Positions 6,116 to 61,810 of a stretch of DNA of 64,000 bases are shown piece after piece. The notes beneath the pieces were generated by a model. It was not told the origin of the DNA, made no database searches, and saw only the letters and a program-made list of their open reading frames with translations. A program made the translations under genes and the position numbers. The stretch covers positions 27,776,001 through 27,840,000 of the forward strand of contig NC_090349.1 of the NCBI RefSeq assembly GCF_035084215.1, in the 5' to 3' direction. The stretch's first letter is position 1. Each line of letters starts with the position of its first letter. This DNA comes from Heptranchias perlo. Its lineage: Eukaryota.

Positions 6116-6509
6116 ATTTTACTGCAATTGACCAATTTTTTTCAGCTCAGGTTCAGAGTTTGATTGGGCTTTCAACTTAACACAGCACACTGTAGTTATC
6201 AGAATTCCAAACTGCTTAGTTTTTGCAATTTAACAATGATGTCACACACAGCTGTTTTGCACATTGTTTCAGACCATCAGGCTAGACAGGGTTTCTTTTA
6301 AAAACACACTTCGCCTGCTGTGAAAAAACATGAAGCCTCCCTATTCTTGCTCCACTAAGCAAATCAAGGAAATGTGAAAATACTTCATTGTAAAATTATG
6401 GTGTCTGCTGTGCTTTTATAAATGATGTGGAGATGCCGGTGATGGACTGGGGTTGACAATTGTAAACAATTTTACAACACCAAGTTATAGTCCAGCAATT
6501 TTATTTTAA

Positions 6510-6550
6510 ATTCACAAGCTTTCGGAGATTTTCTCCTTCCTCAGGCAAAT
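6510..6550 (-). ncRNA. Minimal type I hammerhead ribozyme in the PLE 3' region
   Basis: AUUUGC-CUGAGGA-A-GGAG(AAAAU)CUCC-GAAA-GC-UU-GUGAAU. Confidence 0.8.
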
Positions 6551-6800
6551 GTTTCAAGATCTCCTTGAAGCCTACGCATTTATACATATTGAACAATAAT
6601 AAATGGTGTTTACAGACTGCCCCTGCAACTGCCCGTTGCCAAGGCAATCACCGTGTTCAGACAGAGAGGTGTTACCTGCAGAACCTCCGAATACACATTC
6701 AATAAAAAAACAAACAGGGAAAAAAAAACAGAGAAAAAAAAACACAGAGAGAGGCAGAAACATCCGGAAGGCAGAGAGAGCCAGCAAATGACCCATTATA

Positions 6801-8102
6801 TTAAAAACAGATAACATTTGTTCGCTGGTGGGGTAACGTGTAGCGTGACATGAACCCAAGATCCCGGTTGAGGCCGTCCTCATGGGTGCGGAACTTGGCT
6901 ATCAATTTCTGCTCGACGATTTTGCGTTGTCGTGTGTCTCGAAGGCCGCCTTGGAGTACGCTTACCCGAAGGTCGGTGGATGAATGTCCATGACTGCTGA
7001 AGTGTTCCCCGACTGGGAGGGAACCCTCCTGTTTGGCGATTGTTGCGCGGTGTCCGTTCATCCGTTGTCGCAGCGTCTGCATGGTCTCGCCAATGTACCA
7101 TGCTCTGGGGCATCCTTTCCTGCAACGTATGAGGTAGACAACGTTGGCTGAGTCACAGGAGTATGAACCATGCACCTGGTGGGTGGTGTCATCTCGTGTG
7201 ATGGTGGTATCTGTGTCGATGATCTGGCATGTCTTGCAGAGGTTACCGTGGCAGGGTTGTGTGGCGTCGTGGACGCTGTTCTCTTGAAAGCTAGGTAGTT
7301 TGCTGCGAACGATGGTCTGTTTGAGGTTGGGTGGCTGTTTAAAGGCGAGTAGTGGAGGTGTGGGGATGGCCATAGCGAGGTGTTTGTCCTCATTGATGAC
7401 ATGTTGAAGGCTGCGGAGAACATGGCGTAGTTTCTCCGCTCCGGGGAAGTACTGGACGACAAAGGGTACTCTGTTGGTTGCGTCCCGTGTTAGTCTCCTG
7501 AGGAGGTCTATGCGATTTTTTGCTGTGGCCCGTCGGAACTGTCGATCGATGAGTCGAGCGTCATATCCCGTTCTTACTAGGGCGTCTTTCAGCGTCTGTA
7601 GGTGTCCATCGCGTTCCTCCTCGTCTGAGCAGACCCTGTGTATTCGCAGGGCCTGTCCATAGGGGATGGCCTCTTTGACGTGGTTAGGGTGGAAGCTGGA
7701 AAAGTGGAGCATCGTGAGGTTGTCCGTGGGCTTGCGGTAGAGTGAGGTGCTGAGGTGCCCGTCTTTGATGGAGATTCGTGTGTCCAAGAAAGAAACTGAT
7801 TCTGAGGAGTAGTCCATGGTGAGCTTGATGGTGGGATGGAACTTGTTGATGTTATCGTGTAGTCTCTTTAGTGATTCCTTGCCGTGGGTCCATAGAAAGA
7901 AAATGTCGTCGATGTATCTGGTGTATAGTGTTGGTTGGAGGTCTTGTGCAGTGAAGAAGTCCTGCTCGAACTTGTGCATGAAAATGTTGGCGTATTGGGG
8001 TGCGAATTTGGTCCCCATGGCTGTTCCGTGTGTTTGGGTAAAGAACTGGTTATCGAAGGTGAAGACATTGTGATCCAGGATGAAGCGGATGAAATAAACC
8101 AT
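6801..8102 (-). CDS. PLE partial reverse transcriptase + GIY-YIG endonuclease ORF (433 aa, N-truncated)
   Basis: ORF track; motifs as for the element above; the first codons come from the junction filler. Confidence 0.75.
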   Translation of the reverse strand: MVYFIRFILDHNVFTFDNQFFTQTHGTAMGTKFAPQYANIFMHKFEQDFFTAQDLQPTLYTRYIDDIFFLWTHGKESLKRLHDNINKFHPTIKLTMDYSSESVSFLDTRISIKDGHLSTSLYRKPTDNLTMLHFSSFHPNHVKEAIPYGQALRIHRVCSDEEERDGHLQTLKDALVRTGYDARLIDRQFRRATAKNRIDLLRRLTRDATNRVPFVVQYFPGAEKLRHVLRSLQHVINEDKHLAMAIPTPPLLAFKQPPNLKQTIVRSKLPSFQENSVHDATQPCHGNLCKTCQIIDTDTTITRDDTTHQVHGSYSCDSANVVYLIRCRKGCPRAWYIGETMQTLRQRMNGHRATIAKQEGSLPVGEHFSSHGHSSTDLRVSVLQGGLRDTRQRKIVEQKLIAKFRTHEDGLNRDLGFMSRYTLPHQRTNVICF

Positions 8103-8581
8103 TTACTTTTATAAATGGTTTATTTCATATAGTGACAATTGATATAGGGGATAATAACTAGCACTACCACGATGCAGTTGTAGCTTATGAAGATTACTTA
8201 CATACATACATCTCTTCAAAATTCAAGTGTTGCATTCACACACACAGTCTCTCATGCACACGCATAATTCTCAAATCAAGTCTTTGGTTTGATATGATTG
8301 GAATCTCAGCTAGCACAGATGTAACTGTCCATTTGAAGAGGGCTGTTCAAAGAGATCCATGTAAAGGAAAACTGAAATATTATCAAAATCTGCATTTAAA
8401 TGAAATTACTCTGTTGGAAACACCCAGTATAGCTATTGACTGACAGTTCTGCCTCTGGTATCGACATGTTATGGCAATGTTTCTTAAAAGCTTTAAGACG
8501 TCCCCATTCCACTTTTGAAAATCACTGTCGTTATAAGTAAAACCAAAGCACTTAGGTTGTTTGCAATTTATTGAATTGGGA

Positions 8582-29401: not shown

Positions 29402-29667
29402 GAACCAAGACATTGTAGTAGAGGTTGACCTGATCTCATGTTAAACACATCAGCTGATTGAAGCTGCCCAGAATCTCCACATTTCGACCGCCCCCCGTAA
29501 TTGTTAACAGTACGAATAGCTGATTGAAGCTGCCTGAAGTCTCCATCAGCTATTATCAATGTTAACAACTAGGGGAGGCAGTCAGAACGTGGAGATTTCA
29601 GACATCTTCAATCAGCTGATATGTTTAACATGAGTCCAGGTCATCCTCTGCTACAATGTCTTGGTTC
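29402..29667. repeat. Long imperfect palindrome (~120-bp arms)
   Basis: GAACCAAGACATTGTAGTAGAGG... pairs with ...CCTCTGCTACAATGTCTTGGTTC. Confidence 0.9.
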
Positions 29668-35135: not shown

Positions 35136-35305
35136 TACTATTTTTTTAAAAACAAGGCCGGGTGAGAGAAAATCACATTTAAGTTTGATTAAAAACTAAA
35201 GTCTAAATTATTGAAGTAAGAAGTTATTATTTATGGGCTCATAAATGTATTCAGGTACTGCACGTTCCTCCCTTAATATAAGGGAGGAACGTGCAGTACC
35301 TGAAA

Positions 35306-35573
35306 CTTCTTTTGAAACATAATACCCATTCTAATATTAAAATAAAAATATTTTAAAAACCTTGTATGCGGCTCACATTTTGTGCAATACACTTTAAGGT
35401 GTCACATGTTTCCATGTCAATTTTGTGCCATATTTATTAAAAAGTATTAAAAAGCATCATGAAACCCAATCACCTGCAACCCAAGACTCAGAATGTGTCT
35501 CATCTCTAATGAACCTTGGTAATTACAATGATTGACCCAAGCATCAATTTCAAGAATGCAGAGCAATTACATC
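35306..35573 (+). repeat. 268-bp direct duplicate of 36272-36539
   Basis: Read-through comparison; one mismatch seen (gtatgCggct vs gtatgTggct). Confidence 0.95.
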
Positions 35574-35614
35574 GTTCACCTGACGAAGGAGGAAGCCTCC
35601 GAAAGCTTGTGAAT
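35574..35614 (+). ncRNA. Minimal type I hammerhead ribozyme in a solo PLE 3' terminus
   Basis: GUUCAC-CUGACGA-A-GGAGG(AAG)CCUCC-GAAA-GC-UU-GUGAAU. Confidence 0.82.
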
Positions 35615-35678
35615 TTAAAATAAAATTGCTGGACTATAACTTGGTGTTGTAAAATTGTTTACAATTGTCAACCCCAGT
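35574..35678 (+). mobile_element. ~105-bp PLE 3'-terminal fragment, same family as 6425-8105
   Basis: From CTCCGAAAGCTTG through GTCAACCCCAGT it matches the reverse complement of ~6446-6527. Confidence 0.9.
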
Positions 35679-36075
35679 AAGAAAGTGAGTGTGGGGAGGA
35701 AAAATGCCTAAATTTGGTGAAAATTCAGTACAATATTTTGTTACTAACTAGTGACAACTTAAGTGAACAAAAACATTTGCCAGCAGACTCATTTTAACAA
35801 AAATCCCTCAGAAAATAAGTTTGGTTTAAAAGTCCAAAAAAACATGTTGTCAGATTAAGATACAACAGATAGAAACATGAATATTACCAAAATATTACAT
35901 TTTCAAAGGAACCTAGCATTTAATAAAGGGTGGTCACAGAAGATTCAATTAAAGACTAGTGACTGTGCAATAGACTGAGGTTAGACAAGCACGTTCATGG
36001 ACACTGTCCTAACACGTCCTTAAATTTGAATTTAACATTACTTGGCTTGATTTTCAAGCAATGGGTATAATATAC

Positions 36076-36224
36076 CTTGCTTCTTCGAAGAAACTCTTCC
36101 TCCGGGATAAGATTATCCTCGGTTTTCATCTTTTTGGATGTCGGCTCATCATCTAGTGGTGGAGGAGGACGAGGAAGTGAAGAAGGAAGCGGCGCAGGAA
36201 CCACTGGAGGTGCAGGTACAAATG
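36076..36224 (-). CDS. SF3A1: SF3A1 exon 13
   Basis: FVPAPPVVPAP...DEPTSKKMKTEDNLIPEEEFLRRSK; 149 nt. Confidence 0.95.
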
Positions 36225-36659
36225 CTGTATGCAAAAGTGTGAGAAAGGAGGCATTTTGGAAATTCAAAGTGCTTCTTTTGAAACATAATACCCATTCTAA
36301 TATTAAAATAAAAATATTTTAAAAACCTTGTATGTGGCTCACATTTTGTGCAATACACTTTAAGGTGTCACATGTTTCCATGTCAATTTTGTGCCATATT
36401 TATTAAAAAGTATTAAAAAGCATCATGAAACCCAATCACCTGCAACCCAAGACTCAGAATGTGTCTCATCTCTAATGAACCTTGGTAATTACAATGATTG
36501 ACCCAAGCATCAATTTCAAGAATGCAGAGCAATTACATCTGATCACCTTAAAAGGGACAGAAAATGACATTTAAACACCAACATATGTTGTGCGTTACAT
36601 AATATAATGTCCCTGTCCTCATAAAACAGTGCATTCTCTAACTTACTGTGAGCAACATT

Positions 36660-37104: not shown

Positions 37105-38331
37105 CCTTACTAGGACCACTTGGCTCCAGACCTCATTACAGCCTTGGTCCAAACATGGACAAAAGAGCTGAATTCCAGGCTGCCCTTGACAGCAAGGCAG
37201 CATTTGACCAAGTGTGGCACCAAGGATCCCTAGTAAAATTGAAGTCAATGGGAATCAGGGGGAAAACTCTCCAGTGCCTGGATTCATACCGAGCACAAAG
37301 GAAGATGGTAGTGGTTGTTGGAGGCCAATCATCTCAGCCCCAGGACATTGCTGCAGGAGTTCTTCAAGGCAGTGTCCTAGGCCCAACCATCTTCAGCTGC
37401 TTCATCAATGACTTTCCCTCCATCATAAGGTCAGAAATGGGGATGTTCGCTGATGATTGCACAGTGTTCAGTTCCATTCGCAACCCCTCAAAGCAGTCCG
37501 AGCCCGCATGCAGCAAGACCTGGACAACATCCAGGCTTGGGCTCATAAGTGGCAAGTAACATTCGCGCCAGACAAGGACCATCTCCAACAAGAGAGTCTA
37601 ACCACCTCCCCTTGACATTCAACGGCATTACCATTGCTGAATCCCCCACCATCAACATCCTGGGGGTCACCATTGACCAGAAACGTAACTGGACCAGCCA
37701 TATAAATACTGTGGCTGCAAGAGCAGGTCAAAGGCTGGGTATTCTGCGGTGAGTGACTCACCTCCTGACTCCCCAAAGCCTTTCCACCATCTACAAGGCA
37801 CAAGTTAGGAGTGTGATGGAATACTCTCCACTTTCCTGGATGAGTGCAGCTCCAACAACACTCAAGAAGCTCGACACTATCCAGGACAAAGCAGCTCGCT
37901 TGATTGGCACCCCATCCACCACCCTAAACATTCACTCCCTTCACCACCGGCGCACTGTGGCTGCAGTGTGTACCATCCACAGGATGCACTGCAGCAACTC
38001 GCCAAGGCTTCTTCGACAGCACCTCCCAAACCCGCGACCTCTACCACCTAGAAGGCCAAGAGCAGCAGGTACATGGGAACAACACCACCTGCACGTTCCC
38101 CTCCAAGTCACACACCATCCCGACTTGGAAATATATCGCTGTTCCTTCATCGTCGCTGGGTCAAAATCCTGGAACTCCCTTCCTAACAGCACTGTGGGAG
38201 AACCTTCACCACACGGACTGCAGCGGTTCAAGAAGGGGGCTCACCACCACCTTCTCGAGGGCAATTAGGGATGGGCAATAAATGCCAGCCTCGCCCGCGA
38301 CGCCCACATCCCATGAACGAATAAAAAAAAA
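37105..38331 (+). mobile_element. CR1/Jockey-superclade LINE (second family) in SF3A1 intron 12, with A-rich tail
   Basis: AAFDQVWH, QGSVLGP, FADD, YKAQVRSVMEY; ends ACGAATAAAAAAAA. Confidence 0.9.
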
Positions 38332-40589: not shown

Positions 40590-41357
40590 TTTAAAAATTC
40601 ATTCATGGGATGTGGGCGTCGCTGGCAAGGCCAGTATTTATTGCCCATCCCTAATTGCCCTTGAGAAGGTGGTGGTGAGCAGTCTTCTAGAACTGCTGCA
40701 GTCCGTGTGGTGAAGGTTCTCCCACAGTGCTGTTAGGAAGGAAGTTCCAGGATATTGACCCAGTGACGATGAAGGAACAGCGATATATTTCCAAGTCGGG
40801 ATGGTGTGAGACTTGGAGGGGAATGTGCAGGTGGTGGTGTTCCCATGTACCTGCTGCCCCTGTCCTTCTAGGTAGTAGAGGTCGCTGGTTTGGGAGGTGC
40901 TGTCGAAGAAGCCTTGGCGAGTTGCTGCAGTGCATCCTGTGGATGGTACACACTGCAGCCACTGTGCACAGTGGTGGAGGGAGTGAATGTTTAGGGTGGT
41001 GGATAGGGTGCCAATCAAGCAGGCTGCTTTGTCCTGGATAGTATCGAGCTTCTTGAGTGTTGTTGGAGCTGCAATCATCCAGGCAAGTGGAGAGTATTCC
41101 ACCACACTCCTGACTTGTGTCTTGTAGATGGTGGAAAGGCTTTGGGGAGTCAGGAGGTGAGTCACTCACCGCAGAATACCCAGCCTCTGACCTGCTCTTG
41201 TAGCCACAGTATTTATGTGGCTGGTCCAGTTAAGTTTCTGGTCAATGCTGACCCCCCAGGATGTTGATGGTGGGGAATTCAGCGATGGTAATGCCACTGA
41301 ATGACAAGAGGAGGTGGTTAGATTCTCTCTTGTTGGAGATGGTCATTGCCTGGCGCT
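40590..41357 (-). mobile_element. Same LINE family, inverted copy in SF3A1 intron 10
   Basis: ORF 40638-41165 is nearly identical to 37753-38268 over the first 65 aa. Confidence 0.9.
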
Positions 41358-60039: not shown

Positions 60040-61810
60040 ACTTTTCAGAATAGATACTGCCTGACAAGCCTCCTTAACTTTTTTGTGACATCCCAAGTAG
60101 ATATTGGAAAGGCCTGTGCTATAGAATACCTAAGCTTCCAGAAAGCCTTCAATAAAGTCATACATGACAAACTGCTACACAGCTTAAGGGAATAGGTTTC
60201 CTAGGGAAAACTTAGAAGTGGATAAGAATTTAATGGAAAGAAAGGAAGTGGGGGAGTGATGTCAGGATGGGGGGGTGTACTCACTGGAGTGCTCCATGGT
60301 TTGCTATTGGAACCCCTGCTGTTTCTAATCTGCAGAAACCCAATGCTGTCAAATTTGCAAATGATACTCAATGTGGGAAGGAGGAAAGGTGCAGTCGAGT
60401 CCAATGAAGAACGTAGAAAATATTTGAAAGTGGGTACTTCTATGGTAGATTGTTGAATGCTTTGCCTCCTCATTTGAAAGGGAATTTAATAAATATTTGA
60501 AAAGGTACAATATATAGGAATGAAGAGAAAGGGCAAGGGAATGATATTAGATAACTCTAGTTGAAGAGCTAGCATGTATAGGTGCATTGGATTGAATGAC
60601 CTATTTCTGTGCTATAATTTCTTTAAAGTAGTGTAATACTTAAACTAGCTGGGAGAGAGACTGAATAAGATCCGGTAGTGATATTAGACTCAACATTTAC
60701 CATATCCAGTCACTTGCAGAGCAGCAATCAAGAAGGCAAACAAAATACTGAGCAAAATACTGCCAAATTAATAGTGTAAATCTGAAGCCAAGATGCTTGC
60801 ATAACACTCTGATCAAGCCACACATCGAATACTGTGTTCAGCTCTGATCACTGAAGTAAAACAGAAACATCCAAGCAGGGAAGAGCCACAGGACTGATCC
60901 CTAAGGGGTGATTTTAACCCCCATGAACGGGTGGGTTAGGGGCAGGTGGGAGTTGAAAATAGTTGTTTTTTTAGGTTGCAACTGCAAAATTTTCAGGCTT
61001 TGCATTCCCAGTGGGAAGCCTGTACTTTTATCCACCCAAGTTAAACCCGGAAATAAAGCCGGGTTGCGGTCCCGATCCAAAAAAAAACTTTTTTCAACTC
61101 ACACCCGCCCCCAACCCTCTTGTTCTTGGGGGTTAAAATCACCCCCCTAGTGTCAGTGGACTGAGTTCCGAAGAAAGTTTAGAAATTTTATTTATTTTTT
61201 GGTTAGCCAGGTGTATTGACACATCACAGGATACAAATCAGGAAGGCCATTCAGCGGATCTTAGTTCATCCATCTAGAAAGACCCTACACTTCTCCCATT
61301 ACAGCAACTCATTTTTTCTTAAATTATTCCAGAGATTTTGCCTCTATTACTCATAAAGTCCAATCCATGTATTGATAAGTCTTTGAAGAACTTCCTGACA
61401 TCAGTCCTAAATTTGTCTGTTACTAGTTTGAACCCATGTCCCATTATCCTGCTCTTGCAATTTGTTTGAAGTAATTTTCCAGATTTACTTTTCCAGGCGA
61501 TTTACTGTCTTATACACCTCTAAGATTGCCTCTCCATTTTCTCGATTCAAGGTTGAAAAACCCAAGCTTCTCCAGTCTTTCCTCATAACTCGACCACCAA
61601 CACTAGGGATCGGCTTTGTGGCAATTCTCTGAACTGCCTTCAGCACTCAAATATCATCTTTGTGTCTTGGTGACCAGAAACGCAAGGTGTAGTCTGACTG
61701 GTGCACTTTACAATTTCAGCATGACTTATTTTTATTTGTACACAACTGTTTTTTCCCCCAAATAGTTCAGCATTCTATTTACTTTGTTGAATTTTTTTGC
61801 AGTGGTTGCA
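60040..61810. mobile_element. Cluster of old CR1 remnants (+ ~60040-61200, - ~61220-61810)
   Basis: Degenerate KAFDKV, GVLHGLLLEP and PHIEY-like coding. Confidence 0.6.
60905..61145. mobile_element. MITE with TIR GGGGTGATTTTAACCCCCAWGAAC
   Basis: 24-bp TIR with one mismatch, extending imperfectly to ~70 bp; inserted in a CR1 remnant. Confidence 0.85.

Follow-up and report, generated by a model that had tools for sequence, protein, structure and literature searches.

An insertion in an intron of the splicing-factor gene SF3A1 of Heptranchias perlo is probably a young Penelope-like element (PLE) insertion in which both broken ends were patched by ordinary break repair. It lies in a window of 64,000 nt (NC_090349.1 of assembly GCF_035084215.1, positions 27,776,001–27,840,000 of the forward strand), in which SF3A1 is encoded on the minus strand. 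From left to right the insertion consists of a hairpin of host DNA, a single extra A, a filler copied from nearby intron DNA and a tailless PLE piece, followed by the downstream copy of a 4-nt target duplication (Table 1). It represents a known kind of retrotransposon junction in unusually complete form, apparently unreported for PLEs. Three further SF3A1 coding exons come after the exon that separates the insertion from the source of the filler. The gene name given in the initial annotation is confirmed by the exon match; its numbering of the introns as 13 and 12 fits if SF3A1 has 16 exons, which we take to be the case.

Table 1. Features of the SF3A1 insertion and its surroundings, in window coordinates.
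Feature	Position	Strand	Evidence
Left hairpin arm; single-copy host intron DNA, putative fold-back template	35250..35275	+	26/26 inverted repeat
Hairpin loop, 3 nt	35276..35278	+	sequence
TAAG, upstream copy of the 4-nt target duplication, putative fold-back priming arm	35279..35282	+	repeated at 35678-35681
Putative fold-back synthesis, 22 nt, inverted copy of 35250-35271	35283..35304	+	putative origin
Single A, neither hairpin continuation nor source; no microhomology, likely final join	35305..35305	+	
Filler, direct copy of local intron DNA, 267/268	35306..35573	+	alignment; collapsed 268-nt contig
ACATC microhomology, present in the copied intron and in the natural upstream sequence of the element	35569..35573	+	sister copies
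Tailless young PLE pseudo-LTR piece; minimal type I hammerhead motif at ~35574-35613	35569..35678	+	1,681 exact matches; fold
Downstream TAAG, first T common to the element	35678..35681	+	
SF3A1 coding exon, between insertion and source	36076..36224	-	match to SF3A1 residues 652-702, E 3.9e-14; splice sites
Source of the filler, next intron upstream in SF3A1	36272..36539	+	alignment to 35306-35573

The inverted repeat is perfect, as first described: its arms at 35250-35275 and 35279-35304 are complementary at 26 of 26 positions around a loop of 3 nt, far beyond what 10 shuffled versions of the window gave, where the longest arm with a short loop measured 8–12 bp. TAAG is indeed present at both 35279-35282 and 35678-35681, a match with a chance of about 0.007 for one register. 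The immediate 5' flank is inverted, the loop is small and the 4-nt stem is common to the downstream flank, as in L1-type fold-backs. The earlier proposal that the cut host end folded on a CTTA/TAAG mini-hairpin is well supported and agrees with published L1 and yeast models. By DNA folding the 4-bp stem has a predicted free energy of 0.0 kcal/mol and is not stable alone, so enzyme help would be needed.

The filler had been described as a near-perfect 268-bp copy of 36272-36539, and the alignment bears this out at 267 of 268 positions, the sole mismatch being C at 35369 versus T at 36335. The latter is a CpG site at which the assembly reads T, versus C in the copy and in the contigs of run X1, and the source base may be heterozygous. 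The spacing of 966 bp also holds from start to start with the insert included, but not as the distance before insertion, when the source lay ~0.59–0.86 kb from the break. In sister copies of the element, TTTTCACATC precedes helix I of the hammerhead, which implies that ACATC at 35569-35573 belongs to the copied intron and to the element alike. This 5-nt match at the filler–element junction has a chance of about 0.001. A genome-wide search of the assembly with 35140-35568 found no copy outside the locus, no paralogue and no second-haplotype contig.

The 105-nt PLE piece at 35574-35678 has 1,681 exact matches genome-wide, and its 51-nt core has 21,693. The sister copy L169 has the tandem organization pLTR-ORF-pLTR, with the ORF starting in the pLTR and the core repeats 3,086 bp apart. 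Its ORF matches RVT_1 (E 3.3e-10) and, at the C terminus, GIY-YIG (E 3.3e-4; 21.3 bits, just below the cut-off of 22.6). L128, which has the exact 105-mer, is 95.8% identical to L169 across 2.6 kb and has an open RT frame. Judged by domain order, the family of the piece at 35569-35678 can be placed among the EN+ Penelope-like elements. The predicted hammerhead core comprises CUGA-GA, a 6-bp helix I, a 5-bp helix II, GAAA and a palindromic AGCU, and this modelled fold would be consistent with the minimal type I hammerhead of PLEs as described in the available text of PMC4209133. No hammerhead or other relevant Rfam family matches the piece at E values up to 1.

To define the norms of the family we sampled 250 young PLE copies on contig C1 in position order, using four exact patterns (100 of 1,681, 60 of 1,504, 60 of 2,087 and 30 of 1,230 exact matches) and 1.5–3 kb of flank. 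As 26 of the 250 ran off the fetched DNA, 5' junctions were analysed in 224. A tail past CCCCAGT is present in all 250 copies (at least 16 nt in 249, broken by a 1-nt deletion in one), compared to 0 nt at the insertion, and the 100 sisters with the exact 105-mer all run on into the tail, mostly for 19–29 nt. The piece is therefore not, as had been claimed, the last ~105 nt of a PLE. Departures from the tail at two tested positions, a pattern that catches only part of such copies, occur at 18 places genome-wide, five of which are tailless, the SF3A1 insertion included. Target duplications of 10–16 bp adjoin the element in 174 of 224 copies (12 bp in 96), compared to 4 bp here, and an inverted element arm, absent here, is found at the 5' side in 167 of 224. 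Being tailless and having a shortened target duplication, the copy in SF3A1 is an atypical insertion.

The statement that the piece starts exactly at helix I has to be revised, as the piece is joined via the 5-nt ACATC and forward arms stopping at most 30 nt upstream of helix I are common in the family (147/250). A start set by the ribozyme was considered and rejected: cleavage would be expected at ~35608, and an end shortly before helix I is seen in most sisters anyway. In sister copies a TATA-like box precedes helix I by ~40 nt, and 125 of the 250 forward arms end 6–30 nt upstream of the helix; together this suggests that many short PLE copies represent complete transcripts initiated in the pLTR. 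Separately, 129 of 148 duplication-bounded inverted arms (L061-L428) stop at the window equivalent of 35659-35665, ~38 nt before the forward-arm ends. These stops may be a genomic trace of two RT start points, one per target strand, and match the known tail.

The target of the family is roughly palindromic about the 12-bp stagger in 99 copies with 12-bp duplications (L061-L428), with TG at -4/-3 in 33 and CA at +14/+15 in 31, where ~6 are expected for each. This palindromic target is consistent with a dimeric enzyme that cuts both strands; columns -1, 0, 11 and 12 of the target matrix are biased by duplication calling. The predicted empty site of the SF3A1 insertion would resemble the family target weakly, with p 0.017–0.061 against background for the best of 15 registers, the cut register not being fixed by the matrix. 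Register 35279, implied by the 4-nt duplication, falls at the 4th–16th percentile of true sites.

It is unlikely that a break not made by the element's own endonuclease was mended with a fragment of PLE RNA or cDNA together with local DNA. 3' truncation, the lack of a family-length duplication and extra non-element DNA are hallmarks of non-classical, endonuclease-independent L1 insertions, which carry extra DNA at 15 of 21 loci (PMC1920257, available text), and tailless copies are very rare in the PLE family. However, a short duplication remains in SF3A1, which the criteria given in that text exclude, and the predicted empty site resembles the family target, if weakly. Highly improbable is a two-step history, in which a normal insertion with tail, 12-bp duplication and fold-back in the overhang later lost ~30 bp across the 3' junction. 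The 11-nt stem-loop would fit a 12-nt overhang ending at 35282, leaving the top strand untrimmed, and one T is shared at the 3' junction; but register 35271 scores poorly, and a second event would have to fall in a very young insertion, the piece being identical to 1,681 copies and the filler to its source at 267 of 268 positions.

In the repair mechanism that we favour, the PLE endonuclease would probably make its usual staggered cut of ~12 bp, and the overhangs would be trimmed after the cut. The start of reverse transcription would lie ~23 nt internal to the normal one, so that no tail is made and, with the trimmed overhangs, the duplication is 4 nt. The left host top strand would then likely fold on the 4-bp stem and copy 22 nt of its own flank, while the cDNA end likely invades at ACATC and copies ~263 nt of the intron 0.6–0.9 kb downstream, with DNA rather than RNA as the presumed template and the enzymes of ordinary break repair presumably at work. 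The two new ends would likely be joined without homology and with the addition of one A. The order of these steps is our inference. Homology of 4 nt is observed at the hairpin and of 5 nt where the cDNA joins, and none at 35304-35306; its presence at both priming steps and absence at ligation favours the cDNA end as primer. The initial annotation had the host end switch template and then join the cDNA, which would place priming at the junction without homology (35304-35306) and ignores the 5-nt match of the cDNA, and we regard this order as less likely. L411 shows the same polarity as our scheme: its target duplication is followed by a few extra letters, then by a local copy of 229 bp and a 6-nt match into the element, and the cDNA-side match at L194 is 6 nt. 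Uniform polarity is contradicted by L144 (4 nt on the far side versus 2 nt on the cDNA side), L276 (3 nt and 2 nt, respectively) and L121, which is without an exact match on either side. An identical product is expected if the host end primed and the cDNA annealed at ACATC. The missing tail is an extra assumption of the favoured mechanism, as tailless copies are very rare.

An alternative that we regard as unlikely but not negligible is that the element's reverse transcriptase (RT) builds the filler from the host side, by fold-back, extension of the top strand without homology on nascent SF3A1 pre-mRNA or local DNA, and annealing to the cDNA at ACATC. The order of events is then that of the initial annotation, with RNA added as a possible template. 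With SF3A1 on the minus strand, its pre-mRNA is the right template for a direct copy on the top strand, but the prior for this strand agreement is one half. The source of the filler lies wholly in one intron. PLE protein in vitro extends both target strands and starts without homology (PMC11167929, available text), and the top strand is usually extended in the family, as the inverted element arms attest (167/224). In addition, a nearby pre-mRNA was co-inserted once with L1 (PMC10191854, in the part available). Against this reading, PLE fillers run both ways, three direct and three inverted, and a CR1 copy shows the same product; moreover, the cDNA could not copy SF3A1 pre-mRNA, so the 5-nt match must be the final anneal. 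In general terms it is quite unlikely that the Penelope RT itself connects its two ends with a copy of host DNA from the vicinity or of nascent pre-mRNA. Were the fillers made by the RT, one young family would have produced several hundred local micro-duplications (2.7% of ~21,700 copies, an extrapolation), and the fillers would document in the genome how the 5' end is joined during PLE transposition.

The assembly of the locus was assessed with contigs from four DNA runs, all of one sample, from which the assembly itself may have been made. Artefacts of assembly typically take the form of hairpins and near-perfect duplications, and among the contigs listed for these runs none bridges the filler–PLE junction; nevertheless an artefact is barely credible here. 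One contig spans the hairpin at flank depth in 4/4 runs, and in 3/4 runs the duplicate has collapsed to a contig of exactly 268 nt at ~1.8 times the flank depth, the mark of a segment that is entered by two paths and left by two. Contigs of the four runs extend 19 letters into the filler, below the 31-letter standard for a bridge, and 98% of sampled words are present in the runs. At the predicted empty junction the contigs of this sample are without a break and the flank depths are equal, which is consistent with a homozygous insertion, although contigs show presence and not absence. With the same reservation, no empty allele or orthologue was seen in the contigs of eight runs, nor elsewhere in the assembly. 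Cover in two runs from other samples is restricted to the PLE and exon pieces. Two runs guessed to be RNA do not cover the insert, which says nothing on expression.

Local host copies recur at the 5' junctions of other PLE copies. A BLAST search for local copies ending at these junctions flagged 8 of the 224, from which two were dropped: L094, where an older repeat beyond the target duplication gave a 94% match, and L258, a tandem array. The remaining 6/224 (2.7%, 95% interval 1.0–5.7%) give a lower bound, as do all our filler rates, since sources outside the fetched flanks are missed. Three fillers are direct (L144, 156 bp; L148, 35 bp; L194, 130 bp) and three inverted (L276, 176 bp; L411, 229 bp; L121, 171 bp). 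The source lies downstream in all except L121, where it lies upstream, with a 250-nt loop and the duplication cut to 6 nt. Local copies of at least 100 bp and at least 99% identity end at 5 of 224 PLE junctions compared to 0 of 2,257 flank positions, so they arrive with the insertion. An exact-match junction test (11/190 versus a background of 57/3,644) mixed in old repeats and satellites and was set aside for the BLAST test.

The control comprised 90 copies from the 4,185 that match a CR1-like 3' end exactly, and the 5' end is in view in 84 of them. The junction of L351 carries a 176-bp local copy of 100% identity, and L290 an ambiguous 95.6% copy inside an older CR1 copy, which was counted both ways. 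The resulting rate of 1–2 in 84 is similar to that of the PLE (6/224; Fisher p 0.68 or 1.0), in a comparison with a single control family and low power. Copying of local host DNA at 5' junctions, for which a PLE route had been proposed, does recur in the family but shows no sign of being a PLE signature, and the contrast envisaged between PLE and CR1 junctions does not appear at this low power. At the PLE 5' junctions of L066, L085, L138, L148, L194 and L411, the target duplication or the cDNA end shows short slippage repeats or has snapped back repeatedly, with similar slips at the CR1 junctions L310, L341 and L368. At L118, ~200 bp of satellite sit between element arms, ~275–75 nt upstream of the PLE piece; this satellite resembles the array at 3.9–4.0 Mb of C1 (L050-L058) and ends in a 13-bp hairpin, and can be read as a filler from a non-local template.

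Short-loop host fold-backs were found at none of the 224 sampled C1 junctions (upper bound 1.6%). The window contains a second young PLE copy at 6413-8128 on the minus strand (1,671 bp, 99.9% identical to L169), which has a full 12-bp target duplication and a host fold-back at its 5' junction, with perfect 17-bp arms (8128-8112 and 8105-8089) and a 6-nt loop. The added sequence begins with TAAA, which is also how the inverted element arm usually starts, and these letters could have seeded the fold-back. That the window contains two short-loop fold-backs, versus 0/224 on C1, may be due to chance or to a regional effect.

Each step of the favoured mechanism has been described for L1, R2 or yeast breaks, and the scars are likely the break repair known from human LINE-1 and not a Penelope-specific trick. 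The following comparisons draw on the available parts of the cited sources. At L1 insertions, inverted duplications with a small hairpin have been described and modelled for the reciprocal, non-RT end (bioRxiv 10.1101/2024.12.14.628481), and L1 fold-back inverted duplications make up 0.3–0.4% of events (Nam 2023, PMC10191854). The SF3A1 insertion shares with these the small hairpin, few-base homology at the 5' flank, extra synthesis and joining to the cDNA side, and also the low frequency, with 0/224 in the PLE sample and one unselected case in the window. In contrast to L1, the PLE has a GIY-YIG endonuclease, the copied length is 22 nt versus 52–220 bp (PMC10191854), a separate 268-bp filler follows the hairpin, and the event is not somatic as far as one sample shows. 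In R2 snap-back 5' junctions, synthesis is primed by the 3' end of the cDNA, which uses its own strand as template or, more rarely, target DNA close by (PMC11371274). Priming by the cDNA 3' end before the 5' join is what we propose for the PLE as well, although R2 was engineered, site-specific and studied in human cells, whereas the PLE copies are natural and genomic with sources up to ~0.9 kb away. Yeast double-strand breaks give templated inverted insertions with 5–34-bp fold-back duplications (PMC11724301), likewise by microhomology-primed fold-back beside the break and capture of the other end by end joining, but without a retrotransposon.

PLEs themselves are known to carry tails and inverted arms, to extend both strands without homology (PMC11167929, PMC8557442) and to capture unrelated sequence between solo pLTRs (PMC3846280). 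The family resembles EN+ PLEs in its RT and C-terminal GIY-YIG, minimal-hammerhead pseudo-LTR, optional tail and inverted 5' arm (PMC11167929, PMC8557442, PMC3846280, PMC4209133), whereas the SF3A1-intron copy lacks both the tail and the inverted element arm, and its duplication is 4 nt. The available text of these EN+ PLE papers does not mention a local origin of captured DNA or host-flank fold-back. No report of PLE host fold-backs or local fillers was found in the literature searched, whose scope leaves out most subscription papers and supplements, where single examples are possible. The available parts of PMC12016303, PMC9977147 and bioRxiv 10.64898/2026.07.22.740005 hold nothing further on the subject.

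Natural PLE and CR1 insertions thus also give rise, in a few per cent of cases, to fold-back and locally templated fillers, for which the documentation so far comes mainly from L1 and engineered R2. With thousands of identical young PLE copies, the 5'-joining step of PLE transposition is accessible from junction statistics alone. The SF3A1 insertion itself shows no sign of function; it is a repair scar in an intron, and its value is as a marker.

Elsewhere in the window, two imperfect palindromes at 29402-29667 (80% self-complementary) and 60905-61145 (70%) are possibly old inverted-repeat elements, and the former has a weak, sub-threshold match to mir-34. Two LINE 3' ends of 760 bp at 37565-38322 and 40597-41356 lie in opposite orientation ~2.3 kb apart and are 93% identical.
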